A stretch of 64,000 nucleotides of DNA from Amia ocellicauda (taxonomy: Eukaryota), in assembly GCF_036373705.1 (NCBI RefSeq), contig NC_089863.1:18979406-19043405 (forward strand), read 5' to 3'. A program made the position numbers and the translations under genes. Of the stretch, positions 1,052 through 60,099 are shown piece by piece. Position 1 is the first letter of the stretch. Each line of letters starts with the position of its first letter. The notes under the pieces were generated by a model. The model made no database searches, was not told where the DNA came from, and saw only the letters and a program-made list of their open reading frames with translations.

Positions 1052-3936
<2,885 letters not shown>

Positions 3937-7048: not shown

Positions 7049-10532
<3,484 letters not shown>

Positions 10533-20230: not shown

Positions 20231-21194
20231 GTGTATAATGGGTGGGGGTGGTGTTAAAGGTGCTGCTGTTGTGTTGAGTAATTATTTGTTGCTCCTTGAT
20301 TGAATTCATTGTTCTTGTTTCTGCCTATTTATTAATTTGATACAAGATATCGGGGAGCTCAGGATCCCGTGATGGGACCCACCTCCGGGGACGGCTATCT
20401 CCCCCTGCTGGAGCCCATGTCCAAGATCTTTTAATGAAAAGATTGTTTTTAAAAATGATTTGAAGAATGAATTTTAATTGTTTTTAAAGAATTAGTTGAT
20501 TTTTAAATGCACCGGTTTTGTTTATTTTATGGTTTTATTTGTTATGATTTATCTGATGCATTTTCAGTTAATTTAAATGTATTTGACCATATTGTTTTTG
20601 TTTAATGGTTTTATTTGGCAGTATTGCCCTTAATCACAAGTTTATTTGATTTATTGCACAGGTTTATTCGAGTATGTATTTTGTTTAAGTTAATCACTGT
20701 AAGATTAAAAAAAAAAAAAAAAACAATTAAGTGATTTTAAGAATTGATTTAAATTTATTTTAATTTTGAATATTTATTTACTGAAATGTAAAATACTTAT
20801 CCTAATAAAACGGTAGTAATTTGAAATGTTAAATTTATAAAATGGGGTGTCTGCAAAGCAACCCTACCGCTGAGGGTTTCATTTTTATTACCATTACTAC
20901 TAAACTGTTGGGTGTAACGGTACAGTCTTGTATAATTTGCACCCTTCATTTGAAATTGTGATTAGCTTAAACCGTGTTCCTTAAACAATACAAATGTATC
21001 TAACTTTGCTGAACACTGATTCAGCATAGGAAGTAACACCGGTCCATGTTGCCCACTGTAATTTCTCAAAATATTGATCTAGGTCTCTGACTTAATGCAG
21101 CTACATGATATCCAATTAAACTGCTTTGAAACTGGGAAAAGATACTTTTACAGGGTACGGGAAAACCCACTGTATCTTATAAACTGGAGACTAC

Positions 21195-22416
21195 ACTCAC
21201 CTAAAGGATTATTAGGAATACCTGTTCAATTTCTCATGAATGCAATTATCTAACCAACCAATCACATGGCAGTTGCTTCAATGCATTTAGGGGTGTGGTC
21301 CTGGTCAAGACAATCGCCTCAACTCCAAACTGAATGTCTGAATGGGAAAGAAAGGTGATTTAAGCAATTTTGAGCGTGGCATGGTTGTTGGTGCCAGACG
21401 GGCCGGTCTGAGTATTTCACAATCTGCTCAGTTACTGGGATTTTCACGCACAACCATTTCTAGGGTTTACAAAGAATGGTGTGAAAAGGGAAAAACATCC
21501 AGTATGCGGCAGTCCTGTGGGCGAAAATGCCTTGTTGATGCTAGAGGTCAGATGAGAATGGGCCGACTGACTCAAGCTGATAGAAGAGCAACTTTGACTG
21601 AAATAACCACTCGTTACAACCGAGGTATGCAGCAAAGCATTTGTGAAGCCACAACACGTACAACCTTGAGGCGGATGGGCTACAACAGCAGAAGACCCCA
21701 CCGGGTACCACTCATCTCCACTACAAATAGGAAAAAGAGGCTACAATTTGCACAAGCTCACCAAAATTGGACAGTTGAAGACTGGAAAAATGTTGCCTGG
21801 TCTGATGAGTCTCGATTTCTGTTGAGACATTCAGATGGTAGAGTCAGAATTTGGCGTAAACAGAATGAGAACATGGATCCATCATGCCTTGTTACCATTG
21901 TGCAGGCTGGTGGTGGTGGTGTAATGGTGTGGGGGATGTTTTCTTGGCACACTTTAGGCCCCTTAGTGCCAATTGGGCATCGTTTAAATGCCACGGCCTA
22001 CCTGAGCATTGTTTCTGACCATGTCCATCCCTTTATGACCACCATGTACCCATCCTCTGATGGCTACTTCCAGCAGGATAATGCACCATGTCACAAAGGT
22101 CGAATCATTTCAAATTGGTTTCTTGAACATGACAATGAGTTCACTGTACTAAACTGGCCCCCACAGTCACCAGATCTCAACCCAATAGAGCATCTTTGGG
22201 ATGTGGTGGAACGGGAGCTTCGTGCCCTGGATGTGCATCCCACAAATCTCCATCAACTGCAAGATGCTATCCTATCAATATGGGCCAACATTTCTAAAGA
22301 ATGCTTTCAGCACCTTGTTGAATCAATGCCACGTAGAATTAAGGCAGTTCTGAAGGCGAAAGGGGGTCAAACACAGTATTAGTATGGTGTTCCTAATAAT
22401 CCTTTAGGTGAGTATA
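21195..22416 (+). mobile_element. Compact Tc1/mariner transposon, apparently intact (1222 bp; 29-bp TIRs; TA target-site duplications)
   Basis: Left TIR CACTCACCTAAAGGATTATTAGGAATACC (21195-21223). The right end 22388-22416 is its reverse complement with 2 mismatches. TA precedes and follows the element (21193-21194 and 22417-22418). There is a single uninterrupted internal ORF. Confidence 0.9.
21342..22382 (+). CDS. Tc1/mariner transposase, 346 aa, full length with catalytic D,D,E intact (D..D with 36 residues before E = DD36E spacing)
   Basis: N-terminal paired-like HTH (GKKGDLSNFERGMVVGARRAGLSISQSAQLLGFSRTTISRVYKEW), catalytic D in WSDESRF, second D in FQQDNAPCH, and E in DLNPIEHLW. Counting DNAPCHKGRIISNWFLEHDNEFTVLNWPPQSPDLNPIE gives 36 residues between the second D and the E. 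There are no frameshifts or stops. Confidence 0.9.
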   Translation: MGKKGDLSNFERGMVVGARRAGLSISQSAQLLGFSRTTISRVYKEWCEKGKTSSMRQSCGRKCLVDARGQMRMGRLTQADRRATLTEITTRYNRGMQQSICEATTRTTLRRMGYNSRRPHRVPLISTTNRKKRLQFAQAHQNWTVEDWKNVAWSDESRFLLRHSDGRVRIWRKQNENMDPSCLVTIVQAGGGGVMVWGMFSWHTLGPLVPIGHRLNATAYLSIVSDHVHPFMTTMYPSSDGYFQQDNAPCHKGRIISNWFLEHDNEFTVLNWPPQSPDLNPIEHLWDVVERELRALDVHPTNLHQLQDAILSIWANISKECFQHLVESMPRRIKAVLKAKGGQTQY

Positions 22417-25852: not shown

Positions 25853-26482
25853 CTACAGTGAGGGAAAAAAGTATTTGATCCCCTGCTGATTTTGAACGTT
25901 TGCCCACTGACAAAGAAATGATCAGTCTATAATTTTAATGGTAGGTGTATTTTAACAGTGAGAGACAGAATAACAACAAAAAAATCCAGAAAAACACATT
26001 TCAAAATAGTTATACATTGATTTGCATGTTAATGAGTGAAATAAGTATTTGATCCCCTATCAATCAGTAAGATTTCTGGCTCCCAGGTGTCTTTTATACA
26101 GGTAACGAGCTGAGATTAGGAGCACTCTCTTAAAGGGAGTGCTCCTAATCTCAGCTCGTTACCTGTATAAAAGACACCTGTCCACAGAAGCAATCAATCA
26201 ATCAGATTCCAAACTCTCCACCATGGCCAAGACCAAAGAGCTGTCCAAGGATGTCAGGGACAAGATTGTAGACCTACACAAGGCTGGAATGGGCTTATAC
26301 TTATTTCCCTCATTAACATGCAAATCAATTTATAATTTTTTTGAAATGCGTTTTTCTGGATTTTGTTGTTGTTATTCTGTCTCTCACTGTTAAAATACAC
26401 CTACCATTAAAATTATAGACTGATCATTTCTTTGTCAGTGGGCAAACATACAAAATCAGCAGGGGATCAAATACTTTTTTCC
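25853..26482 (+). mobile_element. Internally deleted (MITE-like) Sleeping-Beauty-type Tc1-like element
   Basis: Left IR tacagtgagggaaaaaagtatttgatcccctgctgattttg...acagtgagagacagaataacaacaaaaaaatccagaaaaac (25856-26000). Transposase start [24 protein letters not shown] (ATG 26223) is truncated after about 30 codons. Right IR 26335-26480 is the exact inverse of the left IR. An internal palindrome ggtaacgagctgagattaggagcactc/gagtgctcctaatctcagctcgttacc lies at 26098-26160. Confidence 0.85.
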
Positions 26483-26689
26483 CTCACTGTATAATAACCT
26501 GTTTGTGCTGGGATCCTATGCTTTTTGGTGAGCCAGCTGGGCTTAGGAGAGGAGGATGCTGGAATGTGGGAGATTTTTGGAGAGGGGCTGCGCGACACAC
26601 CATGCTCCTCTTCACCCTCGCTGACCATCTCAATGGCAAGACCATCCGGGAGTTTGTGGAGAACAGGTTCACTACATGGCCAAAAGTAT

Positions 26690-28140
26690 GTGGACACCTG
26701 CTCCTTGAACATATCATTAAAAAATCCTGGGCATTAATATGGAGTTGGTCCCCTCTTTACTGCTATAAGAGCCTCATCTCTTCTGGGAAGGATTTCTACT
26801 AGATGTTGGAGGTTAAGGTACAATCCTTCAGTTGAAGCAACCCTTCGGGTCCCAGTGAATCAGGCACCCCAGTTAGCGCTTCCAGTAACAGTGTAGACTC
26901 TCAGCAGGAGACAGGCCCAGGAAGTAAAGTCACTGACACAATGTCTGTTCGTTTATCTTTGTTTATTGAAAGTTTCTACAAGCAATATTTCAAAGGAGGT
27001 TCGGGGCCATCCCGAACCTGGATGATATTTTCTTGGCATATATCCCGGGGCAGTTCCGAGACATGGGAAGCAATAATTCATGAGGTATTCTTTATAATTG
27101 GGGAAACAATATTTCATCCAGACATGGAAGCGCTGGTACCAAGGACACAGCACACACTATACTGATGTTATATAATTTTGGTTCGTTAACTAAAGAATGT
27201 CCACAGCAGTATAAATGATCTCTATCTGCCACACAGATAAGTCTGAGCAGAGAAATCCAAATAAGAACAAGGAAACCCTTATAAGAGCAAGTTTTAACTA
27301 GTATCTTACTGGAAAGCAATTTTACCCCAACATTGGATCATTGCTGCAGGGATTTTCTTCCATTCAGCTACAAGAGCATTAGTGAGGTCAGACACTCACA
27401 GCTGGCATTACACTTCATGCCAAAGGTATTTGATGAGGTTGAGGTCAGGGCTCTGTGCAGGCCAATCCAGTTATTCCAAGATCTGGACAATCCATTTCTG
27501 TATGCACGGGGTCATTGTCATGCTGCTCAGCCATGGAAACCCACAGTTATTGTGCTGACGTTGCTTCCAGAGGCAGTTCAGATTGTTGTAACCAAGGAGA
27601 GATGGTTTTACATACTACACTCTTCAGCACTCAGCAATCCTATTTTATGAGCTTGTGTGGCCTTCCAATTTGCATAGACTGTTGTTGCTCCTAGACATTT
27701 CTAGCACATTATTAATATTTGATTTCTTAGCAGACTTATAATTGTTATATCACATTTTACCCATTTATACACTTACTGGAACAATCTAGGTTACAGTACC
27801 TTACTGAAGGGTCTCCCACCTGGAATTAAACACACAACTCTCTCAGCTCCAGAGTCCAGAGCCCTAACCACTATTCCACACTACTGCCCCAGTGGACTGG
27901 GGTAGCTCTAATAGGGCAGAAATTTGACGAACTGACATGTTGGAAAGGTGGCATCCTTTGATGGTGCCATGTTGAAAATCACTGAGCTCTTCAGTATGGC
28001 CCATTCTACTGCCAATGTTTGTTTAAGGAGATTGCAAGGCTGCATGCTTGATTTATACACCTGCCAGCAATGGGTGTGGCTGAAATAGCCGAATCTAACA
28101 CTCATTAGAAGGGGTGTCCACATACTTTTGACCATGTAGT
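26690..28140 (+). mobile_element. Decayed Tc1-like element
   Basis: Ends ccaaaagtatgtggacacctg (26682-26702) and caggtgt...ggggtgtccacatacttttgaccatgtagtg (28105-28140) are inverted. Internal degenerate transposase fragments, e.g. MPKVFDEVEVRALCRP at 27420-27470, are broken by stops and frameshifts. Confidence 0.6.
27765..27905 (-). mobile_element. tRNA-derived SINE copy (tRNA-like head present), inserted in the decayed Tc1 element
   Basis: Reverse complement gives ccccagtccactggggcagtagtgtggaatagtggttagggctctggactctggagctgagagagttgtgtgtttaattccaggtgggagaccc with box A/B-like motifs. Confidence 0.6.
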
Positions 28141-34419: not shown

Positions 34420-34860
34420 AAGATGCAGATGAGGAAAAACAAAAGAGGGAAGAGGAGGAGAGAAAAAAGCAGGAGAGGAGAATGAGGGAAGAGGAGAGAA
34501 GAAAACAGAGGGAAGAGGAGGAGAGAAGACAGGAGCTGGAGAGGAGAAAGGGAAGAGGATGAGAGAAGCTGGGAGCAGGAGAAGAGACTGATGGAAGAGG
34601 AGGAAAGAAGACAGGAGTTGAAGAGGAGTAAGTGGAGATGGGAGGAGGAGAGAAGACAGGAGCTGGAGAGGAGAAAGAGGGAAAAGAGAAGACAGAGGGA
34701 AGAGGAGGAGAGAAGACAGGAGCTGGAGAGAAGACAGAGGGAAGAGGAGGAGCGAAGACAGGAGCTGGAGAGGAGAAAGAGGGAAGAAGAGAGAAGATAA
34801 CAGAGGGAAGAGGAGGAGAGATGCCGGGAGCAGGAGAGGAGAAAGATGGAAGTGAGGCAG
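34420..34860 (+). repeat. Coding-type minisatellite encoding an E/R-rich (EEERRQELERRKRE)n coiled-coil repeat
   Basis: Purine-rich 48-bp-like units (ggaagaggaggagagaagacaggagctggagaggagaaagag). Frame 1 has two in-frame stops (34486, 34798), so either the repeat is partly intronic or UTR, or the locus is decaying. Confidence 0.8.
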
Positions 34861-36290
34861 AGACTGGAAGAAACTAAGAATGATTTGCATGAAAAGAGAA
34901 GAGAAAGTATAAGAGCTGAGCAGGAGAGGTTTGAAACCAAAGTGGAGAGAAAGACATTCCAGTGCCAGTCCAGCTTCCCAGACCACACATACCCTGACCT
35001 TGGATTTCTCAACATCCCTGAAGAAAACATAAACCTCAGGAAACTCTGTCCCGAGCAGATCCTGTCTCTCTCACATTCTCTCCAGGAGCTCTTGTTTGAG
35101 GACTGGGTTGAAGAACTGCCCCAGATGGATACTTTGACTCATGCTCATGTCCTGATTGCAGAGCTGTGTGTGATGGCACTGGATACTGACCATGATGACT
35201 TTCTGGAGCTTACTGCTGACCAGCTGCAGCTGGCAGTGGAGACAGTGGGGCATGCAGTGACAGTTCAGGATGACCGGGAGGAGGAGGAGCTACAGGTACA
35301 GTGTCTGCACTTCACACAGGCCTTGTTCTTGACTTACACACGGCTATTGCTATCGCCAAGGAATGGAGTCAGGGAGAGATTTCATCAGAGCAACTCTTCC
35401 TTCTTCAATTCCTGGAACTCCTCCTCAGAGTCCTGGAGTGGCAGGCAGGCCTATCTAGTGCAAAGGAAAAGCGTCTGGAGCTGATCCTGGAACAGGTAGG
35501 TCAATCTCTGCCTGAAGAAACCAAATCCTTTGCTTGTTTGCTGCCTATTTTGCAGGCACTACTGAGAGCTAACTGGACACCCCTGGATGCACTTGATTGC
35601 ATAGAGAGCTTGGGACAGAAAAAGTTGAACTTCAATGACGCACTGTGTGTCTTAGAGCTGATACAACGGCACAATCTCCCTCCATCCTGGACAGACAGTC
35701 AGGGTAACTCGCTGAACACTCTGCTGGAGTCCACATCCAAATGCAGCAAATTCTACCGCGGACTGGATGAGAAGCTACAAAAGGAAAGCTCACACTGCCT
35801 GGACTCCCTGCTTTCTGAAGTGCAAGAGACAGAGTGTGATCAGCTGAGGAGTGTTATTGGTGCTGTGCTGAAAGACATAAAAGAGATTCAGGAAGAAACA
35901 AAAGACAAGGGAAATGCAGGTAAACCTTACAAGACACTTTTCCATTACCTTTTGAAAGAATCCAGGTTTGGGACAACAGAGCTGAGGATAGTGCTGTCCC
36001 ACCTTTGCAGAGCAATGTTCTACACACATGGTTGGTATCCCTCAGTACCTCAGATAATAAAGTGGTATAACTTGGTTGAAACTTATGGAAGGAAAGACTG
36101 TGAGATCCTAACGCTAGAGAAAGACCCCTGTGTGGCAGCCATGTATGCAGCACTCAGGGTGCTTCAGGGGCATCGGGTGGGCATAGTGCTGGGCTCTACC
36201 TCCTCCAGGTCACAGGACTGGCCTCCTCTCCTATCATTGGTCAATCTTTCATTCACCTCATTCAAACCCTCTCTCCTTCACAGTACTTAA
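34846..36290 (+). CDS. Putative uncharacterised protein-coding gene (E/R-repeat N-terminus, roughly 460-aa alpha-helical unique region); proposed 65-nt intron 35296-35360
   Basis: ORF 34846-35484 (frame 1) and ORF 35301-36290 (frame 3) overlap. Splicing CAG|gtacag (35295/35296) to tatcgccaag|GAATGG (35360/35361) joins them in frame: ...VTVQDDREEEELQ|EWSQGEISSEQLFLLQFLELLLRVLEWQAGLSSAKEKRLE.... Codon usage looks protein-like throughout (LPILQALLRANWTPLDALDCIESLGQKKLNFNDALCVLELIQRHNLPPSW...). I do not recognise a named family. A frameshifted pseudogene is the alternative. Confidence 0.4.
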
Positions 36291-37437: not shown

Positions 37438-37607
37438 GGGGTGCAACAACAAATAATAATGTAATAATAAAAATAATAATGTCCAATAAAGTGAAGAAAT
37501 AATTTGTACCCATCAGTATCTAGGGTAATTTGATTTTTGTATATAATAAACATTAAAGGTTTATCAATTCGTTAACATTTAAACATCCCTATTAGGTAGC
37601 ACAGTAT

Positions 37608-37960
37608 ACAGTGAGGGAAAAAAGTATTTGTTCCCCTGCTGATTTTGTACGTTTGCCCACTGACAAAGAAATGATCAGTCTATAATTTTAATGGTAGGTG
37701 TATTTTAACAGTGAGAGACAGAATAACAACAAAAAAAGCCAGAAAAACGCATTTCAAAAAAGTTATAAATTGATTTGCATGTTAATGAGGGAAATAAGTA
37801 TTTGATCCCCTATCAATCAGCAAGATTTCTGGCTCCCAGGTGTCTTTTATACAGGTAACGAGCTGAGATCTCTTAAAGGGAGTGCTCCTAATCTCAGCTC
37901 ATTACCTGTATAAAAGACACCTGGGAGCCAGAAATCTTGATGTACCAGCTCAGTGGGATG
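37608..37960 (+). mobile_element. Truncated SB-type Tc1-like element (left IR plus internal palindrome only)
   Basis: tacagtgagggaaaaaagtatttgttcccctgctgattttgtacg... is about 95% identical to 25856-26160. Confidence 0.8.
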
Positions 37961-38185
37961 GCAAGAGACAGTCATTACATTACATTATTTGTCATTTAGC
38001 AGATGCTCTTATCCAAGGTGACTTACATTTGTACCCATTTATACAGCTGAGCATTTTACTGGAGTAATCTAAGTGAAGTACCTTGCTCAATGGTACAACA
38101 GCACTGCCCCACCCAGGATTTGAACCCACAACCTTCCAGTTACGAGTCCAGAGCCCTAAGTAGGCAACTTGTTGCAGTCACATCT
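37960..38185 (-). mobile_element. tRNA-derived SINE, near full length
   Basis: Reverse complement gives a tRNA-like head (ttagggctctggactcgtaactggaaggttgtgggttcaaatcctgggtggggcagtgctgttgtacc), then the body, then the tail gtaagtcaccttggataagagcatctgctaaatgacaaataatgtaatg. Confidence 0.75.
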
Positions 38186-38289
38186 GCTATTTCTACTGCA
38201 GGAACTGTAAGCAATTATTACATTACTACTGTAACAGATGCAGCAGCACTAGTAAAAATAATAATAATAATAAAAAATCAGCAGTCTTT

Positions 38290-41200
38290 TTAATCTACAG
38301 AGCCAACAGGAGGCAGAATAACTAGGTCCCTATTCATATCCAGAGTCCAGAAGAAGGGATAGAGCTTATCTCCCTCAGTGAACTGAATGTCAGCGAAGGT
38401 GTAGATATGAGCCCTGGACTCCACTTTGTAAAAGGAGACCCGCCTCCTCCAGAGATCCACACACACCGCCATCCGGCTGGGCTGTAGGCTCTGGGGGAGG
38501 GGAGTCACAGGGTCGGTGAGCGCTGAGAAATCGGAAGAGAAGGATCCCAAAGCCCAGTATCCCTGCTGGGGCGTGAAGGCGAACTTCCCCTTCCTCTGGG
38601 CGGACTCCCGAGCCACGCCTATCCTGCACCAGCCGTTGACCTCCACCATCCAGTAGTGTGTCCCCGAGGTGAAGCTCTCCCGGCTCACGGTGCAGCACCA
38701 GGAGTCGAAGCGCCGGGGGTTGTCGGGAACCTCCCGCAGCTTTCCCCGTCGTACTCTCTTCCCATCCTCGGAGAGGGCGAGCTCACAGTACGCCACGTCA
38801 GGGTCCAGCGTCACGTCCACTGTCCAGGGAGGGGACACAAACATATAGTGTGGTGCGTATAAACAACACGGCCAGGGTGATACCACCACCATCAAAATTC
38901 ATCCACACATTGACAGGGTTCAAGTGAAGCCGAGTGAGACGCAGCAGAAAAGACCATTTTGTTTATTAATGCAGCGGATAAAGGAAATAAACCCACCAGC
39001 AAGCAAAGGAAACATCTATGTACAGTAAAGAATAAGTAATTTAGAAGAAAAGATGGGACAGTGCCGACATGTATTATTACTATTATTAATCAATCAGGCA
39101 GCAGTGTGGAGCACAGGTTAGGGCTTCGGCCTCCTGGGCTATATTGAAGCAATTGTAAGTTGCCCTGGATAAGGGTGTTTGCTAAGAAATATAATTATAA
39201 TATATTTCCAATCTCTAGCGTTAGTTAAAGTCAAATTTAAAAGGATTTTCCAATCACATCATAAAGGATACTCAATGCTGGTGCAGTACACCTTGTCTCT
39301 TACGGTGACGTGTAAATAAAATGTGTGGGAGCGCACAGATGAGGTTGCTTCTCATAAATCAGCAGCAAAGAACACTCACCCCATTTGCCCAGGAGACCTG
39401 CAAGAAACAAGGCCATACGTTAAAGATGAAGAAATATTATTCCAATCAAATTGCCTTTTCATATTGCACACTTATGACAAGAAAGATGCACGCTGAATGT
39501 CTTGTTGTTTTCATGACACATGCTGTAAGTAAGTGTTTTCTACATTGTCAGATTCTGGAAATATTCTTTGAAAGTAATTGTATTTGGCAATTAACTTACA
39601 CATGCCTGTAACCCAAATTCGCAGAGTAAACCAATAATTCAACACAAAAATTGAAAATTCATAAACCACAATTTTGTGCTGTGACTTTATGGGAGACATG
39701 TGAAAAGTAAGACAATACATGCAACTTACATGGCATTTCACAAATAAAAAACAGAGAATGCGCTTTTTATGCTTTATTGAGAATTCAGACAAAAAAGTAA
39801 GAAACACAAAATTGGAGTTTAAACAGCTATGTAGTGGTCATGTGGGTCTTTGAAACTTGCCTCAGATGGAGACTAAATGTTTCCCCTGTCAGGCACTATT
39901 GCTCTCAGGCTGGAGGGAGGACTTGTAACAGGCTCGGGTGAATTAATGCAGAGTGGATCCCCAAGAAATACAAATGTCACCAAATTGATTTACTTACCTT
40001 TAAATGCCCACAGATTCTCCTCCTCTGCAAAAAGAGAAATGGAGTGGAGTCAGCAACCCTGTGAACCCAGCAAGTCCACTGAAATCGTAGCGATTGCTTT
40101 TAAGAAAATAGACTCAAGAAAAGTCTCATCCTGCAATATTAAAAAAGGGGGCTACAGCACAATGTGGAAGTGTAAACCCTCTTCAGAGGCACAGAGAATC
40201 CCCAGCACACTGTTCTCATAGGAGTGACTAATTCAGACATGCTTACAAGTGGACAGCACAGAGATTTTATCTATCTATCTATCTATCCAATGATAATCTT
40301 ATAAAAGGGTCTTTTAGTTTTGTGGATTTTAAGGAATATGCTGCATGTGATTGACTGCCTGGTGAGCCAGAAGAAAGTTCTTGAAAATAGGGTATTAATT
40401 GAGCATCTGGGAGTCTGTGTGTGCAAAAAGGCTAAAGATCCTCCCCACTCGATGATCAGTCACCTATCGCTCTTGAGGTGATGGTCATACACCACTCTGT
40501 TATCTAGATTGAGGGTGCATGTCAAAGGTAACAGTGTCTTTAAGAACAGCTACAGCATTCACAGTGACACACATTATGATCAAGCTACTCACTGTCCATT
40601 CTCCTCCACTGCCTCAACAGAAGAGGAACCGCCACCACACCAGTGACCACAGAGAGAGCTGTGGTGAGGAGGAAGGCCACCATCCACCCACAGGGGTAAG
40701 GGAAGAAGTCCACTGCGAAACAGAACAGGAAGGTTAATCCACAGGAACCCTCACACACAACTCCTCCGCTGCTAATCTGGGCCTACGTAGCAAAGCCACT
40801 ACAATACTGGGACAGACGAGGGCAGTGGCACCCAGTGTAGCACATCATGGAGGTGGTCCTTGTCCTCTTGTTGTCATCATTCCCTTAGTCATGTGAGTCT
40901 AGGCCTAAACAAACTATTTACTTTCTGCTACATATGCCTATTGGGTTTGTCCACTACAACTGAAAAGAAGCCATATCGTGAAAATTATTAAACAAAGAGA
41001 GTAATTTAGACATCAGATGAGAGATTGGAAGAAGAAAACTACATAACATATACTTGATTGCATGGTAGAATAACAAAGATGGTTATTGAATTGTCTGTTG
41101 TGTTGAAACAGCATCCTGCAGTGACTGAAATGAAAAGGGGAACAGCGAGCTACAGAAAGTGACACCTCAGTGTGCAATCGGTTGCAAAGGAAGTGTGTCA

Positions 41201-42492
41201 TGTGACACTTAGGGAGTATCAGCTCTTTGAAAACAGCAGAAGGTCAAGGAATTTGTCTATTCTCGATTACAGTAAGAATTACAACATCTAGTTGAGTAAT
41301 TGAAGTTATGAGCCAGTTAGGATTATTACTATTTTTTATTATTATTTAAATGTGTGCAGTAAAAATCTACTCTATAAGAACTGGAATGTTGCAGATCTAG
41401 GCCAAAAATAGTTTTCCAATTTTTCCAAATAGCCGAAGTAGTATTTAAATATATATTATCAACAGAAGCAATTATTAGTTTTTAGATTCAAATGTTGATT
41501 TCACAAAAACAACATTTTCAATATTTGAAAGTATTTTAATTGAATCTCACAAAACATGGGTAATTAATTGTATGTAAACATAATGTGATATATTGTAACA
41601 ATTGTAAGTCGTACTGGATAAGGGCATCTGCTAAGAGATATAATAATAATATTGTGTATTTGGTGTTCCTGTTCAGGTTTGCTCATTGAAAGTGCTCATA
41701 ATTGCGCTTTAGCAACTGAGAGAACCTGAAGTACTCACTGGCTATGTGGAGCTGGGATGCCCAGTCTGGTTCAGGCACTGTGCTCCGGATCAGGCAACAG
41801 AAGACACTGGAATTCTGTCTGAGTGGGAAGTAGCTTCTGACATTCAAACGCCCCTGACCGTCACTCTCCACCGTGGTCTTGGATTGATTGGTGACGTTGT
41901 GCCCGTTGCTGTCTGTCCACATCACTGTGGGCGCAGGGTACCATCCCTCTGACCTGCACTGCAGCTGGGTTTGACCTCCTTCAGAGTGGAGGGACACTGT
42001 GGACAGGGTCCCCAGAGCTGGCAGGGGTTAGTACAGCTGGGTGAGTCTGTCTGGGTGGTCAGTGAAGCTCATACAAAGACAGCTGAGACATCATCAATGT
42101 TCTAGACCAGAACATATAAAAGTTTAGTATCACCTTATTAGGTACTTTATTCTTATGTCAATGCTCCCCTGATTACCCTGAGAAATGCCACTGGTGTAAA
42201 TGTGACAAGGGAACCCTGTATTACAGTGTATCATCTACATCTACAGGAACAGCAGATAATAGCCACTGGGCTGGGAGTTCACGTGACATACACAATGTGA
42301 AGGTCATTCCTCTTTATTGTCGTACTGGTCGAGAGAAATGCTCTATATTGAGGTATAGAGACACCCAGGCGACCAAGACCGAAAACGTCTATGCCACGTT
42401 GCTCTTTTGAACCAATGAAACTCTCACCTTTAACCTCCACATTTGTCACGAGTAGAACAGTAGTTCTAAAGAGCGGTTTAAATAAATTGTTA

Positions 42493-42557
<65 letters not shown>

Positions 42558-43682
42558 GTTCTCTATCCATCTATTTCTTGATGTAATTGTTGATTCATCG
42601 CAAAAGTGCAGACACCTAAAGAACCAAGACCAATAAACCTCACCTTTCACGACAACGTCAATGAGAGCTTCTTCGTACCACTCGTCAGTTTGAACCAGAC
42701 ATCTGTAGCGACCGTCGTCAGAGCCTCGCACCGCCATCAGGCCCAGAGACACGTTGCCTGTCCTGAACTCCTCTGGGAAGAGTCGTGTCCTGTTCTGGTA
42801 GGCTGCCATCTGCTTCTCGTTGTCGTACTTGCCCCTCCAGTGTAGACACACAGGCGCCGAGTGGTCCTCTCTGAACCACCTGATCTCCATGCCCACTGCG
42901 CTGATGCGGGACGAGAGATGACAAGGCAGAATGGCATCCTCTCCGGCGAAGATGACAAAGGGTTTAGTGGGGCCGAGAACCTGAAAATTCCCTGTGGGGA
43001 GACAAATCACACAGTTGAAGAAACAGTCTTTTATACAGACCAACATATAGATGAAAAAAATATATAGACAGTATGGTCCATGACTAGCATGAAGCACCAG
43101 ATTGTTATAGATGATGGGTCAAATAGAGATGTCTCAAAACCTACACCCAGCTACCAGCACACTCGTCTGTCCCTACACTTCCTCCCATCCATTCTGAACT
43201 TCCTGTTCGAGAAGATGCCCCCAGTGTTGTTGTTGGGGGGGAGGGGATTGACCACCACCCCTGATTAGAAAAATATGAGATTCAGATGGAAACTACAATG
43301 AAGCTTCCATGGAAAAAATACTTCTCCACTGTCTACTTCTGCCCATCAGTGCTGAAACGACAAACCCACTGGGGTCAGAACTACCCAGTCCCAGACACAG
43401 CTTTTCAGACAGTAATACCTCAACAACCTCCTGAGAAGCAGCCTTTAATATAACTGATTTTATGTTCATCTCCTTGGGCTCCTGTGCTCAGAAACCAATG
43501 AGAAGAGCTGAACTGCAGGCATCTGGGGTGGGCTGGGCTGAAACCCTGCTGTTGAGGGTCTGAGCCCCACTTGGCAGAGCAAAGCTGCTCTCACTGTACC
43601 TGATCCTGAGACTGAGCAGTGCTGCAGCAGCAGGGCAATCACACAGAGCCACTCCGAAGGGTCGGGCTTCATCCCTGGAAGA
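38290..43682 (-). CDS. Butyrophilin-like (BTN/BTNL-type) gene: signal peptide, IgV, IgC, TM, mini-exons, B30.2/PRY-SPRY
   Basis: Minus-strand exons, all with GT/AG and a consistent phase 1: 43682-43610 (MKPDPSEWLCVIALLLQHCSVSGS); 42991-42644 (IgV: NFQVLGPTKPFVIFAGEDAILPCHLSSRISAVGMEIRWFRED...DDGRYRCLVQTDEWYEEALIDVVVK); 41996-41739 (IgC: SLHSEGGQTQLQCRSEGWYPAPTVMWTDSNGHNVT...RLNVRSYF...); 40712-40593 (TM: DFFPYPCGWMVAFLLTTALSVVTGVVAVPLLLRQWRRMD); 40024-39998 (27 nt, KEENLWAFK); 39397-39380 (18 nt); 38819-38290 (B30.2: VDVTLDPDVAYCELALSEDGKRV...WMVEVNGWCRIGVARESAQRKGKF...LYPFFWT..., stop TAA 38290-38292). Further small exons between 39400 and 40590 cannot be excluded. The domain order IgV-IgC-TM-heptad mini-exons-B30.2 is diagnostic of butyrophilins. 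Confidence 0.8.
42486..42556. repeat. (ATT)n microsatellite in the BTN-like IgV/IgC intron
   Basis: attattatt about 23 units. It produces the poly-N and poly-L stretches in spurious ORFs. Confidence 0.95.
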
Positions 43683-43859
43683 GACGGACAGATTAGCAGT
43701 GACAATTCCCAGGTGGGGTCAAGTGTGAGGAATCGGTGGGGTGTGGGAGTGTCAGACCCCACTGTGGGAGATGGCGGAACAGCTGTGAATACTGTATTCA
43801 GGCTGTGTTACGCAGATAAGGGAGAATCTGGAAGTTGTAATGGAACACATTCACGCCCC

Positions 43860-44035
43860 TCAACAGACACTTGTGCTAGTAGTAGTAGTATCAACAAAAA
43901 GAGTAGTATTTCTATTAGTAGCAGCCACAGTTGTACAACTAGTAGTAGTAGTAGCAGCAGCTGCAGGGACAGATGTAGAAGTAGCAGAAATAGCATTTGT
44001 AGTAGTAGAAGTAGTAGCAGCAGCAGTAGTAGTGT
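43860..44035. repeat. Imperfect (AGT/AGC)n trinucleotide repeat
   Basis: agtagtagtagcagcagc... It gives Ser-rich and Leu-rich or Val-rich spurious ORFs on both strands. Confidence 0.85.
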
Positions 44036-46736
44036 AAACCTGTGTTTTGGATGTGCTGAAGGGGTTACTTGTCACACTTTAAAATAGGGTGGTGTGATTC
44101 AGAAGGAGGCAGACCGTTGCCAGCTGAGTTTTATCACACAGCCTCACACACTGCCCTCGGTTTACTTCCTCATTACCCAACTCCCTTCCTGTGTGAACTC
44201 CCAGCTTTATTCACAAAACCTCTTCGACAGAGACCTGAAGAGAGCTGTATATGAAACCTTATGAACACACACTGACAATCCCTGAATTGTTTCCATAGCA
44301 AACCTGCTGAACTGAAAGGCCTTCTACCCTTTAACTTTCTTCTGAAGAGCTACTACTTTATGAACTGCTATTAATACTATAAATGTTACTGTACATTGTG
44401 GAACCATTACTAAAATACATTTCTTTGCCCTGAATAAAAACTGAAATATTCAAACATTTTCTTATTTTCTTATGGTGTACTCATTGTCTAGTGCTAAAGT
44501 GAAATTTTCACACACCGTTGAAAATCATAGCATTGTATCCCAACAGTTTGTGTTTTTCCTACTTTCATTTTCATTTGATGAAAGTATAGGAGGCTGTCTT
44601 CTCCATTCTCCCAAAGGTTACATATTAACCACTATTCTAAAAAATACTGTTTCAGTTCACATCAAATGATATACACAAAATAAAGTGAATCTATACGTAG
44701 CAATTAAAAAAATATTAAATTTTAATATGTAGAATAAAAATAAATCCCCATTAATAATTCATATATTTTTTAATTCACCTGAACATCGACAAATGTGATG
44801 CAACTTTTGCACAGTTTAAAGTGAATATTTTGCTCTAAGGAGATTTTTTTGGCAGGTGTAAATTTGCTATTTTAGATTAGTGATACACTTTCTGTAGTTT
44901 ATATATATTGCTACATTCAAACCACAAATACTACACAATGTACTCAGAATGGCAGTCTTTAGCTGCTGGTGACCAAGTGTGGGTTCAGTGGCAACTCCAG
45001 GATTCTCAACTTACTGGGGTAACTTAGAAACCTCATTGATGTTACGTAGTTGTCCATCAACCAAAAGGAGTAATCTTCTAAATGATAGTAATGTTTAGAA
45101 AAACTTTAGTCAAGTCTTCCCGATTGGATGTCTCCGCAGTGTTTCGTTATAGTTGAATAACCTATATTGGAATTATTCTCATTAAATTGGGTCCTTGTTT
45201 GCCTATCAATTAAGGGAGTATATTTCTCCATCTCACTCCCTCATCTCTCTTTGCCTCTTTTTGTCCTTTCTCTCTCTCCTGTCTAAACTCTAGTCTGCAA
45301 AAGAACATGATAATACAAAATAAACACCACCAATGACAATATAATTTACAGAAATATAAATGACAAAATTACGTTTCTTTGGGGGAGATTCCACTTTTGA
45401 CATTCCTGTAATAATGATAAAGATGTATTAAAGAAGACCTCCCATTAGTCCGGGAATGTCACAAATGGAACCTCCCCCAAAGAAACACAGGGTTTCCACA
45501 AAACAATTGTAGAAATTCACTTATATGGGACATTTATATAAAAATTGAGTTGAGTGAAAAGCAATCCTGCTTGAATATTTACAGTTTTCTTTACAATAAA
45601 AGATAAATCTCAAATCTAAGTTTATTAATAATGGCTAAATAGTCTACTGTTAACCTTCATCACCCCATTTCACAAGTTCAACAACCTCTAAAATATTTGC
45701 AAGTTAGTAAAAGTGTAGATAATCCATGACTGCATTATAAAAAAATGTATAAAACCTGTTTTTCATAGTATGGCATTCTTTTTCTTGCAAATACAGATAG
45801 AAATAATCCCTGCACACTGTTCAACTCTTTTCCAACTTTCTGGCAGAGGTGTTGTTGGAATTTGCCATTTAATCAGGCTAGTAATTGGACACAGACTGAC
45901 ACTAATATCTGACAGAGCTAGAAAAAGTACCATGTCAAGTTTTCTATGTGTGTTATTGTAATCGTCACCTGAGGCAATTCAATACTGTATTACTTCAATA
46001 AGGTTCTGCTAGTATCCAGATCTGTTAGTATCTAGTAAATAATTTATAAAACTATGAAAGATGAAAATGAATAATTTACAAGCCGAAGTCATATGTTCAG
46101 TTTTATGACAGATATTTAAAATAATGCAATATAATTTTAAATACTGCATTCACTATTAGTTTACTTTACTCCAAACATGGCCTTCCAAAAAAAAAAAAAA
46201 GTGCGACTACACGAGGAAACTAATGATGAGACTAAAATGAAGGTTTTGTAGCAATTATTAAACAACCTTGAACTTGATTTATTATAGCCTACGCCTCGGA
46301 AACGTTCATTTCGACCTACATACTTTTACATTATTATTTCTTTAAGTGGCGAATTGGCGGATAGAGTTTTAAAAGTTTAAAAATACGCAATGTGAGACAT
46401 GTAGGAAGCCTATATATATTTCAGTTAAACGTGAAGGATACGGTTGGTAATTGTCGTGAAGCGGGGGGGTTACCTGGTCACAGAGAAGCCTTGACGCAGT
46501 TGCACATCTGGCTCTTTCTTGCCGCTGGAGTAAGGTGGGTGCAGTTACACCTCTATTCCGATATAAGGAAGGATCTGAAGAAAATGTATTACAAAAAGTT
46601 TGAAGAACACACCATCTGTGGGATAAGGGAGCGCAGTCTGTACATTGCTGTTTCTACAATGCTAGTTCCTTGTTAGTCTCTTTTTTGTCTCCTGTTTCAT
46701 CCACTGATGAACTCATATGGTTTCTCAATATCTGAA

Positions 46737-52800: not shown

Positions 52801-55363
52801 TCCTGCAGCGCTGGTTCCTCCAGCCTGAACTCATTTTAAAATGCTAGGGGACCTTGACAACCGCCATATATAAAATAGTGGCTTCTGAAGAGAGAGAAAA
52901 TGTAGATAGTGTGCCATGAGTACACACACACACACACACAGCTAACTAACATTAACATGTTAACAAATGCAAACTGATTGTCTAACTTGGCTAAATCATT
53001 ATCAGTTTGTTACAGTTAATGCTGAGTATGTCTGATTCCAAGCATCGCTCTGTAGACGTATAAAGCCTTAAGTCTCAGTCTAATAAAAAATAATCTTTGT
53101 TACACTGGTATTTACAAACAGTGTCCACAATACATGCATTAGAGAGATTAACATTTGGATTGTTTTATTATGCTCACAATAGTCCTCTTGTATATTTTAT
53201 GGACTATTGTCTAATAGACACTTGATTTGATTAAGAAAATGCTTTTTTAATAGACAATTTAATGTTTTTAATTTACAGTAATGCTATCTAAAGGAATGTA
53301 TGTTATGCATTTATAGTTCATGTAATTGTATGCATTTTAAAATCAGATTATTTTATTCTATTGATTTTCATAGTGATTTGTCATGACAAATTGGATTTAT
53401 CTACCTGGGCCACATGAACGCTAATACATACAGCAGGTACCATGTGCTAGCAAGTCTTTCTGTGCAAGATATCTCCAGTCCAGCAGGATATGAGCTGCTA
53501 CTGCCACGTCATAACTTTTTCTTTTACTTTGTTGGCAAGCCACTTTGCAATGAATGCAATGAAATTTGGGAAAAGGATTTCAAATTAAAAGATAAACTTG
53601 AATGTTATCTGGCCCTAATAGGAATATAAAATGTGCAGAATACTTAAAAATCAAAAACTCAAAAGAAAGGCAAACATTGACAAGGTACCACATCCTGGCG
53701 ATTGAAACGGGCTGACACAGACGGTCCTGGGTTGCCAGAGAGGAGCGGCTGTGTGGCCCCTGTGAGCAGGGAGAGATCAAAACAGAGACGCACTTCCTGC
53801 TGTCCTGCTCGAAATACACAGATATATGAAAATAACACACACCCCCAAGTTTCTGAACCATTAAGTTTTGAATTCTTACAGGATAATGTGTTATTACAAC
53901 AATCTGTTTAAGGAACAATCAATACATAGGTAATGTGATTGATTTATTTTCTTGATGACTTTAGTGTACTTTCGCATTACAGCCATGTTGTTGCTGAACA
54001 TGTGGACTGTGAAACTCCCTCATCACTCTTATAGGTGTGATTAAGTTGATTTTGTAAACGTCTTTCTCCCCTCCCTTCACGATGACAATATTTTTGGTAT
54101 AGATAGATGCTGTTCTCCTGTCTTGTCTCTCCCCCAGGAACTCTCCCTGACTCTGGGGAAAGGGCTCCCATTGAGCAGCAGCACTGTGAGCAGGAGTGGA
54201 GCACCAGTCTGAGGCAGGACACAGAGCCCACAGCTACTGAAGACAACCAAGGACTGACTGAGCAGCACAGGAGCAGACAGAGTGAGAAGGAGTTCAGGGG
54301 ACTTGAGTCTGGCCACAAGACAGAGCCACAGACTGAGGATTTAACACTGGGACTCGGGGTACTGGGATCTGAGTGCGGACCCAGTGCAGCTAGTGCCGAG
54401 CTTTGCTCTACTGCAACACAGCCTGAACCCAGTGTGGCATCTGATCACATTAAAACGGAGGACAATGAATTGGAGTTAGACGCACATACTCTTCTGAAAG
54501 ATGAGCTCTATAATGTTAGACTGGAGAACATTATAGGAGGTTTCAGTAACCTGGAACCTGAACTCTGTGTAGATAGACTGAGAGAAACAGAATCCGTTGC
54601 CTTGAGGACAGGGCTGAGTGGAGGGAGTGATAGATGTGTGAAGGGTGAGAGCCCAGCTGTGTGTAGACAGCTGTGTCCTAGACTCTGCAGCTCCCACACT
54701 TCCCCCTCAGAACAAGCTCAAAAAGATCAAAGCTCCCATTGCTGCCCCAATTGTGGGAAGACTTTTGATAAGTTTGGAAGCCTTAAAGAACACCTGTGCA
54801 GTCATACACAAAAAGGACGGTATTGTTGCTCCCAGTGTGGGAAGAGCTTCAGCCATGCAGGGAACCTTAAATGTCACCAGCGCATTCACACAGGAGAGAA
54901 ACCTTACTGCTGTTCTCAGTGTGGGAAAACCTTCACTCATGCATGGGGTCTTCGGTCACACCAGCGGGTTCACACAGGAGAAAAAAAATACTGCTGCCCC
55001 CAGTGTGGGAAGAGCTTCCGGCATATAGGAAACCTTAAATGTCACCAGCGCATTCACACAGGAGAGAAACCTCACTGTTGCACCCAGTGTGGGAAGACTT
55101 TCACTCATGCATGGGGTCTTCGGTCACATCAGCGGGTTCACACAGGAGAAAAAACATACTGCTGCCCCCAGTGTGGGAAGAGTTTCCGTCATATAGGGAA
55201 CCTTAAATGTCACCAGCGTATTCATACAGGAGAGAAACCATTCTGTTGCACCCAATGTGGGAAGAGATTTGGTCGTGCATGGGGCCTTCGGTCTCACCAG
55301 CGGGTTCATACGGGAGAAAAAAATACTGTTGCTCCCAGCATGGGAAGAGCTTCACTCAGTTAG
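49831..55363 (+). CDS. C2H2 zinc-finger protein gene with a fish-type (FiNZ-like) N-terminal domain; two coding exons, 49831-50137 and 54138-55363
   Basis: Exon 1: [66 protein letters not shown]...AAGAG, with donor GCT G|gtaaca (phase 1). Exon 2: acceptor tctcccccag|GAACT (phase 1, in frame), encoding [15 protein letters not shown]..., an acidic/Ser linker, then 7 tandem C2H2 fingers ([48 protein letters not shown], and so on, with TGEKxY linkers). The last finger is disrupted by a frameshift ([16 protein letters not shown]; another frame reads [22 protein letters not shown]). Stop at 55361-55363. Confidence 0.75.
50440..50800. repeat. Tandem duplication of a roughly 200-250-bp AT-rich unit in the zinc-finger gene intron
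   Basis: ttgactttattcaaatgctaatgcaaaatggaacatgattatgcaatcccacaattgcataatcatgcccca is repeated at 50680-50760 (gattgactttattcatatgataatgcaaaatggaatatgattatgcagattatcccacaattgcataatcatt). Confidence 0.8.
53690..53830 (+). mobile_element. L2-type LINE fragment (C..C...E..HFLL.C..Y motif)
   Basis: Translation [29 protein letters not shown]. Confidence 0.45.
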
Positions 55364-58990: not shown

Positions 58991-60099
58991 AACTAAATGT
59001 TGCATTAATGTGTTTCAGTATAAATGAAAAATAATAATAATGCAAGAATCTAGGCAATAATGCAGCAATAGGCAAAACCTATGGAACTACCTTTCCATGT
59101 ATCACAGACATGTCCATTGAAGTACATGATTGTCAGCCTCTTTGTGAGTTATTCAGGTCCCTCAGACATGCCACTGAGCAAAGCTGGGCCTCTCCATGAA
59201 GTGACAGAGGGGCACCTCGGGGTTTGACTCCACTAGACCTCTGAAGGTGTGCTGTGGTATCTGGCACCAAGACGTTAGCAGCAGATCCTTTAAGTCCTGT
59301 AAGTTGCAGGAACTCGTGCACCTTGAGCTCGTGATTCATCAGACCAGGCCACCTTCTTCCATTGCTCCGTGGTCCAGTTCTGATGCTCATGTGCCCATTG
59401 TAGGTGCTTTCAGCAGTGGACAGGGGTCAGCATGGGCACCCTGACTGGTCTGCGGCTACGCAGCCCCATACGCAACAAACTGCGACGCACTGTGTGTTCT
59501 GACACCTTTCTATCAGAACCAGCATTCACTTTTTCAGCAATTTCAGCTACAGTAGCTCGTCTGTTGGATCGGACCACACGGGCCAGCCTTCGCTCCCCAC
59601 GTGAATCAGTGAGCATTGGCCGCCCATGACCCTGTCGCCGGTTCACCGCTTTTCCTTCCTTGGACCACTTTTGATAGGTACTGACCACTACAGACCGGGA
59701 ACACCCCACAAGAGCTGCAGTTTTGGAGATGCTCTGACCCAGTCATCTAGCCATCTCAATGTGGCCCCTGTCAAAGTCGCTCAGATCCATACGCTGCCCA
59801 TTTTTCCTACTTCTAACACATCAACTCTGAGGACAAAATGTTCATTTGCTGCCTAATATATCCCACCCACTGACAGGTGCCATGATAACGAGATTATCAG
59901 TGTTATTCACTTCACCTGTCAGTGGACATAATGTTATGGCTGATTGGCGTATATATAAATGTGTGTGTGTGTATGTGTGCATGTGTGTATGTATGTATGT
60001 GTCATTTTTGAAAAATTTAAGTTACCCTAAAACTGTAGTAATTTAGTTTGAACATAATTCAAGTACATGCTTCGTTTCTTTTTTTTCTTTTCTTTTTGT

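Follow-up and report, generated by a model that had tools for sequence, protein, structure and literature searches.

Evidence for an intact butyrophilin-family gene with two short in-phase exons between transmembrane and B30.2 exons in the bowfin Amia ocellicauda

Does this bowfin locus encode a single intact butyrophilin (BTN/BTNL)-family gene, in which an immunoglobulin-type ectodomain and a transmembrane segment are connected to a B30.2 domain through very short exons, or do these parts belong to separate genes or to a copy in decay? The window, that is, the whole 64-kb stretch of DNA analysed, contains on its minus strand seven colinear coding exons that extend over ~5.4 kb (43672..38290) and are listed with the neighboring repeats in Table 1. 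In this splice model every intron is bounded by GT..AG (12/12 splice sites canonical), the 6/6 exon junctions are in phase 1, and the 1395-nt coding sequence, devoid of internal stops, specifies a product of 464 aa. This product comprises, in order, a signal peptide, IgV, a BTN-type IgC, a transmembrane (TM) helix, the residues of the 27-nt and 18-nt mini-exons and a PRY-SPRY (B30.2) domain. The layout is that of the immunoglobulin superfamily, with one domain per exon and phase 1 throughout. Exon use was judged from the RefSeq model, splice-site quality and conservation among paralogs. The spliced translation matches RefSeq XP_066577974.1 over its entire length (100% identity, 100% coverage, 464/464 residues) with an equal exon structure, and this entry bears the title "butyrophilin subfamily 1 member A1 [Amia ocellicauda]". 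An earlier sequence-only reading had described a butyrophilin-like gene with the full IgV-IgC-TM-B30.2 architecture at 38290-43682, on which the splice model, Pfam, PDB searches, fold comparison and the RefSeq name all agree. The locus is therefore very probably an intact butyrophilin-family gene that had been annotated before as XP_066577974.1. Since this exact protein is named butyrophilin in RefSeq, the gene is not poorly annotated as had been supposed, and its placement among teleosts has to be abandoned, the identical protein being that of a holostean, the bowfin. The gene is genuine but, with its protein already a RefSeq entry, ordinary.

Table 1. Positions of the coding exons and of repeats in and near the gene, in window coordinates
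Feature	Position	Strand	Basis or remark
Exon 1, coding part: ATG and signal peptide MKPDPSEWLCVIALLLQHCSVSGS	43600..43672	-	Splice model; ATG 43672-43670
IgV exon, 348 nt, phase 1-1, residues ~25-141	42644..42991	-	Pfam V-set 5.7e-11, residues 41-139
ATT microsatellite, IgV-IgC intron, 24 imperfect copies	42486..42557	.	TRF
IgC exon, 279 nt, phase 1-1, residues ~141-234, Cys161 and Cys215	41739..42017	-	Pfam C2-set_3
Transmembrane exon, 120 nt, phase 1-1, residues ~234-274	40593..40712	-	Splice model
Mini-exon 1, 27 nt, phase 1-1, (K)EENLWAFK(G)	39998..40024	-	Flanks tttttgcag / gtaagt
Mini-exon 2, 18 nt, phase 1-1, (G)LLGKW	39380..39397	-	Flanks tttcttgcag / gtgagt
SINE-tail-like fragment, 64 bp, mini-exon 2 to B30.2 intron	39140..39203	+	Self-blastn
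B30.2 (PRY-SPRY) exon, coding part, residues ~289-464	38290..38819	-	Pfam; stop TAA 38292-38290
SINE-like repeat, gene orientation	37975..38160	-	Starts 130 nt 3' of stop codon
Tc1-type non-autonomous fragment, downstream of gene	37605..37938	.	94-97% identical to 25854-26493

Each of the Pfam assignments (V-set, C2-set_3, PRY, SPRY) lies above the curated cut-off and well outside what chance would give. Exon 1 ends with the donor CAG/gtacag, and an AG acceptor only 2 nt 5' of the ATG hints that the 5'UTR begins on another exon, more distal and not located. The tblastn match of exon 1 (89% identity, 28 aa) falls short of full identity as its HSP extends into the intron; in the alignment, the N-terminus is kept in all bowfin paralogs. 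Cys48, Trp63 and Cys122 of the IgV domain (AF2 pLDDT ~88-94) are invariant across an alignment of 40 sequences, and the IgC domain corresponds to PF22705 C2-set_3 (BTN3A2-like Ig-C; 3.2e-13, residues 152-219). The TM exon encodes the hydrophobic stretch GWMVAFLLTTALSVVTGVVAVPLLL and, after it, RQWRRMD as a stop-transfer motif. As read from the sequence, the hydrophobic stretch is 25 residues long (242-266) and precedes the basic RQWRR, while AF2 places helices at 242-256 and 261-284 of this region with low confidence. The motif QWRRMD is common to the bowfin paralogs and gar. The B30.2 domain lies on one 530-nt exon (PRY 4.4e-16, SPRY 1.8e-18; AF2 pLDDT ~93-96). The features that characterize the family are thus found together, namely a signal peptide with IgV and its canonical disulfide, a BTN-type IgC, a single TM segment, short in-phase exons and a C-terminal B30.2.

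The best matches of the protein in a PDB sequence search were BTN3A3 (E 7e-73), BTN3A1 and BTN2A1, in the range 1e-73 to 1e-68, with BTNL8 and BTNL3 lower at ~1e-54. The AF2 model has a mean pLDDT of ~80-95 for the three globular domains; its top Foldseek matches are the full-length BTN3A1 and BTN2A1 cryo-EM chains (E 1e-39), and its B30.2 superposes on that of BTN3A1 with a TM-score of 0.90 and an rmsd of 1.5 A. Human BTN3A1, BTN3A3 and BTN2A1 (8zhr, 8zjx, 8za9) have in common with the bowfin gene the type I IgV-IgC-TM-juxtamembrane-B30.2 plan, but they are only 31-33% identical to its protein and the bowfin juxtamembrane linker is much shorter. Most of the basic residues of the BTN3A1 phosphoantigen pocket may be unconserved in the bowfin B30.2, a point that we take as a lead only. 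Could the gene be, as its RefSeq name would have it, a true orthologue of mammalian BTN1A1, with a role in lipid-droplet secretion through the binding of xanthine oxidoreductase? Bovine BTN1A1 is indeed the best ectodomain-only PDB chain (148 bits, vs ~130 for BTN3A1 and ~119 for BTN2A1), with 39% identity in the fold alignment, and the ectodomain has TM-scores of 0.81-0.84 against the BTN1A1 and BTN3A1 ectodomains (0.81 for bovine BTN1A1 4hh8, rmsd 2.8 A). The full-length comparison, however, favors BTN3A/BTN2A, the B30.2 alone is nearest to that of BTN2A2 (B30.2-only PDB search, 3e-38), and the protein groups with bowfin-specific paralogs and not with any single outgroup gene. Fish, moreover, do not lactate. 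A phylogeny of 2026 describes BTNs as class-specific with many lineage-specific duplications (PMC12841164). Such an orthology, together with that role, is improbable, and BTN1A1 in the RefSeq name is an automated best-hit label rather than a demonstrated orthology.

The B30.2 domains of the TRIM family (TRIM7, TRIM21, pyrin) have the PRY-SPRY fold in common with the bowfin domain, with a similarity of E ~1e-29 vs 3e-38 for the BTN B30.2. The bowfin gene differs from this family in that it is without RING, B-box and coiled-coil exons and in that its B30.2 is joined to an Ig-TM ectodomain. The two mini-exons are just as the sequence-only reading had described them, in phase, 27 and 18 nt long and situated between TM and B30.2. 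Both are contained in the identical RefSeq protein, both retain good polypyrimidine tracts, and their peptides are kept in the paralogs with short linkers. Mini-exon 1 is homologous to KEEMLWAFR (P0004) and KKEKMWLFK (P0003), with a tblastn E of 0.014 in a 2-kb search space. Mini-exon 2 aligns with GLHRVW and GLPKVW of paralogs, even if its six codons are too few for statistical significance alone. This last point would suit a situation in which an Ig-only B7/MOG-like gene lies beside a separate B30.2 gene and the mini-exons are chance AG..GT segments. Against it, all parts are on one strand, colinear within 5.4 kb and in phase 1 throughout, and RefSeq joins them into the identical 464-aa product; a RING, a B-box or other upstream exons of a separate B30.2 gene were not seen, tblastn with the BTN protein matching only these exons in the window. 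The joined architecture and the linker peptides moreover recur in 14/14 of the bowfin and gar relatives that were aligned, many further database matches show them too, and the gar mini-exons were mapped on genomic DNA. A pair of adjacent genes is therefore scarcely credible.

In the protein of this gene, the linker from the hydrophobic TM stretch to PRY is only ~22 residues long (267-288); the mini-exons contribute 15 of these, and AF2 confidence is low over the linker (pLDDT 39-57). The linker of BTN3A1 is long. A long coiled-coil juxtamembrane region of the BTN3A1 type was considered and rejected for the bowfin protein, the full-length alignments with BTN3A1 and BTN2A1 requiring ~25-30 additional columns. 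Additional heptad exons had been anticipated between 39400 and 40590; a homology search of the introns from TM to B30.2, based on paralogs whose linkers are longer, revealed no extra paralog-like mini-exon, and the RefSeq model contains none. Short exons in this position are a feature of the BTN family, the number of heptads varying between lineages (PMC6790196, PMC4046983, PMC12841164). Very short in-phase cytoplasmic exons likewise follow the TM exon in chicken BG genes and in the heptad exons of mammalian BTN genes (PMC4046983, PMC6790196), but chicken BG has many repeated 21-nt exons and a long coiled coil, without IgC or B30.2, where bowfin has only a 27-nt and an 18-nt exon. The description of the bowfin mini-exons as heptad-type holds for their position and phase, but not for their length, which is not 21 nt, nor for the heptad pattern, the periodicity read from the sequence being weak. 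As their lengths are multiples of three in phase 1-1, gain, loss, duplication or skipping of such mini-exons would keep the frame.

The relatives of the gene illustrate this freedom. After the identical protein, the next matches are from Amia, Lepisosteus, Atractosteus, Acipenser and Polyodon, all non-teleost ray-finned fishes. About 15 bowfin paralogs are located on the same 36.2-Mb chromosome, and the architecture is common to them and to gar, sturgeon and paddlefish relatives. The bowfin paralogs compared (P0003, P0004, P0008-P0012, P0019, P0021, P0028) resemble this gene in domain order, signal peptide, QWRRMD motif and B30.2. The linker is equally short, 9+6 residues, in P0003, P0004, P0008 and P0009, whereas other paralogs have up to ~30 more linker residues, including a duplicated six-residue unit, VRHGRW/ARHGQW. 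In a spotted gar BTN-like gene (P0034, locus L001), which has the same IgV-IgC-TM-mini-exons-B30.2 organization, the TM exon ends (ATGGACA/GT) at the same phase-1 position as in bowfin, but the AG/GT-flanked phase-1 mini-exons measure 18 then 27 nt (45 nt total) instead of 27 then 18 nt. The gar linker ends in WICSAS, the protein is 57% identical to that of bowfin, and the gene covers 17 kb vs 5.4 kb. Linker length can differ among the bowfin paralogs, and mini-exon order between gar and bowfin, because the mini-exons are frame-neutral.

This copy is the most divergent of the bowfin paralogs and has the longest branch, with 62-65% (~64%) identity to the others, which are 73-90% identical to one another. 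It is altered at 19/144 near-invariant family positions, the second highest count of the 40 sequences, most members being altered at <=6; among the altered motifs are TLDPDTAH, which became TLDPDVAY in PRY, and VCVDIEER, which became VCVDLWRR. These departures from the consensus are compatible with relaxed constraint. The gene is also the sole BTN copy in the 64-kb window, where tblastn with the BTN protein matches only these exons, and it stands amid transposon and SINE debris. These observations would be expected of a duplicate that looks intact but is in decay, a BTN paralog on which selection has relaxed and which is becoming a pseudogene, with no present function. They are countered by the open 1395-nt frame, by the 12 canonical splice sites and the good polypyrimidine tracts at both tiny exons, by the retention of the Ig cysteines and of core B30.2 residues, by the confident AF2 fold of the three domains, and by two other sequences in the set of 40 with similar deviation counts. 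Incipient decay is consequently rather unlikely, and an intact gene remains the preferred reading. An equally doubtful proposal, drawn from the same sequence comparisons and taken as a whole, is that this isolated, fast-evolving copy, with its altered PRY motif and with only 15 linker residues from its mini-exons, may have been neofunctionalised toward a new extracellular or B30.2 ligand, and that the mini-exon order of bowfin and gar may reflect boundary sliding or cassette reshuffling. If it were true, holosteans would constitute a useful outgroup for the evolution of BTN juxtamembrane signalling modules.

The product is a type I membrane protein with IgV and IgC outside the cell, one TM helix and a cytoplasmic PRY-SPRY domain. 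By analogy with mammalian BTN2A1, BTN3A1 and BTNL3/8, the ectodomain, probably dimeric, would be displayed at the cell surface, where lymphocyte receptors would have it as their ligand or co-regulator. Inside the cell the B30.2 would bind a partner, and the juxtamembrane helix would couple the two sides of the membrane. The protein may accordingly serve as an immune ligand at the cell surface, with its B30.2 as a sensor in the cytoplasm. To our knowledge, holostean BTNs have no known ligand or partner. A part in the regulation of T cells, or as a ligand of the gamma-delta TCR, may be envisaged from the mammalian relatives (PMC12841164, PMC6790196). The full BTN architecture, in which short cassette exons in phase 1 connect the TM exon with that of B30.2, has been reported for jawed vertebrates generally (PMC12841164). 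The present locus confirms it in holostean fishes, shows that the RefSeq model for the gene agrees with the raw sequence, and provides one concrete case of modular linker evolution (27+18 in bowfin, 18+27 in gar, longer in paralogs). In the open-access literature searched, no paper combines 'butyrophilin' and 'bowfin', and the bowfin family is undescribed there. The importance of the locus is little beyond bookkeeping, and it holds no surprise for the specialist.

The repeats called for several corrections. The intronic array read as (ATT)23 is present, but it counts 20 perfect units at 42498-42557 (regex count) or the imperfect copies of Table 1. The SINE said to abut the B30.2 exon corresponds to a SINE-like repeat that is indeed nearby, but begins past the stop codon and probably lies within the 3'UTR or immediately after it. 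The repeat carries a B-box-like GGTTCAAATCC, as read from the sequence, ARAGORN called no tRNA, and two more copies occur in the window at 17346-17468 (84.6% identity) and 27752-27867 (70%). The Tc1 fragment attributed to an intron was not recovered there: tblastn found no Tc1 in 38290-43682, and the only Tc1-type piece, whose terminal sequence is tentatively assigned to Tc1, lies 3' of the gene. Its SB-type designation is not borne out either, no Sleeping Beauty terminal repeat being matched at <=3 mismatches anywhere in the window. The related segment at 25854-26493 adjoins weak Tc1 transposase remnants (26737-26811 and 27420-27470, tblastn). An intact Tc1 transposase is also present in the window and served as the tblastn query. 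Finally, the IgC-TM intron contains at 41589-41652 a second copy of the SINE-tail-like fragment, 84% identical to the first by self-blastn.

The minus-strand exons of the butyrophilin (BTN) gene were assembled by script after reading 37500-44500 (see the table). Joining the seven segments gives an open frame of 1395 nt, in which all junctions are in phase 1 and all introns (560-1026 nt) are bounded by GT..AG, with good polypyrimidine tracts. One domain per exon is the classical layout of the immunoglobulin superfamily, and the gene fits it. The gene coordinates and the sizes of both mini-exons had been proposed by an earlier, sequence-only reading, and the assembled exons show them to be exact. 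About 200-370 bp before the start codon, in a putative promoter or 5'UTR region, there is an imperfect low-complexity tract rich in (TAG/CAG)n, for which TRF gives periods of 24 and 30.

Coordinates of the BTN exons and of the other features discussed (window positions)
Feature	Position	Strand	Length
BTN exon, ATG and signal peptide	43672-43600	-	73 nt
BTN exon, IgV	42991-42644	-	348 nt
BTN exon, IgC	42017-41739	-	279 nt
BTN exon, TM	40712-40593	-	120 nt
BTN mini-exon 1	40024-39998	-	27 nt
BTN mini-exon 2	39397-39380	-	18 nt
BTN exon, B30.2, TAA included	38819-38290	-	530 nt
(TAG/CAG)n-rich tract	43860-44040
ATT array (TRF)	42486-42557
Perfect (ATT)20	42498-42557
SINE-like element	38160-37975	-
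SINE-tail-like pieces	39140-39203; 41589-41652		64 bp each
Tc1-type piece	37605-37938
Fragment related to SecA-DEAD-like proteins	34430-36290	+
Its first long ORF	34801-35481	+
Its second long ORF	35274-36287	+
Sulfotransferase fragment 1	1907-3148	+
Sulfotransferase fragment 2	7299-9478	-
Further minisatellite	5674-6721
Intact Tc1/mariner transposase ORF	21342-22379	+	346 aa
Inverted terminal matches of this element	21192-21222; 22386-22416
Degraded Tc1 transposase	59329-59799	-
C2H2 zinc-finger ORF	54107-55360	+	418 aa
U4 snRNA genes	61481-61622; 63293-63434	-

The domain composition, fold and family of the product could be established along with the gene structure. All four Pfam domains exceed the curated cut-offs: V-set (residues 41-139), C2-set_3, the BTN3A2-like Ig-C model (152-219), PRY (291-338) and SPRY (342-447). 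Among PDB sequences, the top matches are BTN3A3 (7e-73), BTN3A1 and BTN2A1 (4e-69), with BTNL8 and BTNL3 at about 1e-54, and the best-scoring ectodomain-only match is BTN1A1 (2e-42). The B30.2 domain alone ranks BTN2A2 (3e-38) ahead of BTN2A1, BTN3A1 and TRIM7 (1e-29), in that order. An AlphaFold2 model built from a 40-sequence alignment has a pLDDT of ~90 for IgV, ~80 for IgC and ~94 for B30.2, and low confidence in the TM/juxtamembrane helix (242-284). When this model is compared with the PDB by Foldseek, the full-length BTN3A1 and BTN2A1 cryo-EM chains rank first (E 1e-39); the bovine BTN1A1 ectodomain gives a TM-score of 0.81 and the BTN3A1 B30.2 domain a TM-score of 0.90 at 1.5 A. Five N-x-S/T sequons are present. 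A MOG/B7-like identity is ruled out by the presence of B30.2, and a TRIM identity by the Ig-TM ectodomain and the lack of RING and B-box.

A large protein search returned P0001, the RefSeq protein XP_066577974.1, as a 464-aa match with 100% identity and 100% coverage, named "butyrophilin subfamily 1 member A1 [Amia ocellicauda]". Since its string is identical to our spliced translation, the RefSeq product holds both mini-exons and none besides. As a gene it is unremarkable: the family is known, and RefSeq already contains this exact structure. The butyrophilin assignment of the sequence-only reading was right at its core, as domains, sequence and fold matches and RefSeq name agree; the "poorly annotated" status that it had added does not apply at this locus. 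Next in the ranking come about 15 bowfin paralogs (57-65% identity) encoded on the 36.2-Mb chromosome that also carries this gene; proteins of gar, alligator gar, sturgeon and paddlefish follow. All of these, like bowfin, are non-teleost ray-finned fishes, and the teleost context first suggested for the gene is thus misplaced. The subfamily name BTN1A1 is a best-hit label. The evidence on one-to-one orthology with mammalian BTN1A1 points in different directions: BTN1A1 is the best ectodomain-only PDB match, B30.2 is closest to BTN2A2 and the full-length protein to BTN3A3, the protein clusters with bowfin paralogs, and BTN duplications are reported to be lineage-specific (PMC12841164).

The linker between TM and B30.2 was compared across the family. 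The peptides encoded by the mini-exons, (K)EENLWAFK and (G)LLGKW, can be aligned with those of four paralogs in which the linker is short (P0004, P0003, P0009 and P0008), with sequences such as KEEMLWAFR/AFLAEN, KKEKMWLFK/GLHRVW and KKETMWLFK/GLPKVW. Linkers of other bowfin paralogs contain up to ~30 extra residues, and in P0010 and P0019 a 6-residue unit is apparently duplicated (VRHGRW ARHGQW). L001, the spotted gar locus encoding the BTN-like protein P0034, shares the ATGGACA|GT phase-1 boundary at the end of its TM exon; next come two AG/GT-flanked mini-exons, of 18 nt (L001 18972-18989) and 27 nt (19746-19772). The total of 45 nt is that of the bowfin gene, but the order is reversed (18+27 versus 27+18). 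From these phase 1-1 exons of 3n nt in bowfin, the longer paralog linkers and the gar arrangement, it follows that the linker is a set of phase 1-1 cassettes with lengths that are multiples of three. Gain, loss, duplication or skipping of such a cassette leaves the frame intact. The gar gene spans 17 kb (L001 10001-26947, CM082495.1) versus 5.4 kb in bowfin. The intron that precedes its B30.2 exon measures 6.6 kb, and upstream of the gene, on the opposite strand, is a trypsin-family gene.

The mini-exons match the "very short exons called heptads" found between TM and B30.2 in mammalian BTN genes (PMC6790196), and the variable bowfin linkers match the varying heptad number of vertebrate BTNs (PMC12841164). 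The repeats of chicken BG, however, are 21-nt units (PMC4046983), unlike the 27 and 18 nt seen here. In our reading the a/d hydrophobic pattern is restricted to L265-W269-M272-(E276)-W279 and is then broken at two glycines. The description "heptad-type" holds for the position and phase of these exons, not for their unit length, and their heptad periodicity is weak. Additional heptad exons had also been anticipated. A tblastn search (word size 2, E up to 50) of 38700-40750 with long linkers from three paralogs (P0010, P0011 and P0021) and three gar proteins (P0037, P0045 and P0034) recovered only mini-exon 1, the end of the TM exon and the beginning of B30.2, the rest being noise (E >0.2). As this low-stringency search revealed no further paralog-like mini-exon in 38820-40592, and the RefSeq model contains no others, extra exons are unsupported.

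Pairwise identities and an NJ tree place P0001 on a long branch, as sister to the remaining bowfin paralogs. Its identity to them is ~64%, versus 73-90% among themselves, and its identity to gar is 57%, versus 59-67% for the other bowfin copies. This pattern fits a post-split duplicate evolving faster than its siblings. Of the 144 positions with at least 90% conservation among the other 39 family members, 19 are altered in P0001, which ranks second among the 40 sequences by number of such changes. Examples are T297V (TLDPDTAH motif), R342T (SGRHYW) and E412W/E413R. P0001 keeps the Ig cysteines, Trp63 and the B30.2 core intact. Such divergence could reflect neofunctionalisation or relaxed constraint.

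By analogy with mammalian BTN2A1, BTN3A1 and BTNL3/8, the product would be a type I surface glycoprotein that probably dimerises and would offer the IgV face to a receptor on lymphocytes. On the cytoplasmic side, B30.2 would interact with a partner inside the cell, and the juxtamembrane helix would relay the state of the protein across the membrane. BTN3A1 has a long coiled coil, whereas the very short bowfin linker argues against a BTN3A1-like coil.

Concerning repeats, the ATT array noted earlier in the IgV-IgC intron is real (24 copies by TRF, 20 of them perfect). The SINE said to abut the B30.2 exon corresponds to a nearby SINE-like element in the gene's orientation, which begins 130 nt past the stop codon. 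It carries the B-box-like GGTTCAAATCC and has two more copies in the window; no tRNA head was found in it by ARAGORN. Two SINE-tail-like pieces are intronic. The proposed intronic SB-type Tc1 fragment did not hold up: no Tc1 remnant was detected in the introns by tblastn with the window's intact transposase or by blastn with the whole element, and a search of the window gave no match to the Sleeping Beauty ITR. The sole nearby Tc1-type sequence, 94-97% identical to 25854-26493, is located on the far side of the SINE, 3' of the gene, and falls outside the interval originally assigned to it.

On the opposite strand, 2 kb downstream of the BTN gene, is an unannotated fragment made up of an E/R/K-rich repeat followed by two long ORFs overlapping in different frames. 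Neither ORF had a match in Pfam or in a word-indexed protein search. A full HMMER search with the second ORF returned 19 relatives (best 2e-92), all of them 'uncharacterized' giants of 1750-3180 aa from gar, Brienomyrus and Cololabis with SecA_DEAD and P-loop_SecA domains; the ORF thus has no relation to the BTN gene. What is present is limited to the helical module of the N-terminus (~350 aa), repeated 2-3 times in the homologs, with a frameshift near 35340 and without the ATPase part. Judged from these features, the fragment is probably a truncated pseudogene derived from a fish gene family that is still undescribed.

When the BTN protein was used as tblastn query, no second BTN or B30.2 copy was found in the window. 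Two sulfotransferase gene fragments of the cytosolic type, inverted relative to each other (Pfam Sulfotransfer_1, 8e-22 and 2.5e-21), have near-identical peptides and minisatellite-filled introns; each runs into a long minisatellite of its own that is open in three frames and encodes a repeating peptide unit; a further minisatellite lies near them. The whole looks like an inverted segmental duplication. The uninterrupted Tc1/mariner transposase ORF (HTH_Tnp_Tc3_2 and DDE_3), flanked by short inverted terminal matches, may belong to a still active element; the second, degraded copy has 47% amino-acid identity. A single-exon C2H2 ORF combines an acidic first half with six or more zinc fingers in tandem (zf-H2C2_2, 1.5e-41). 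Finally, two full-length U4 snRNA genes (Rfam RF00015, 117.5 and 119.2 bits versus a gathering score of 46) stand 1.7 kb apart.
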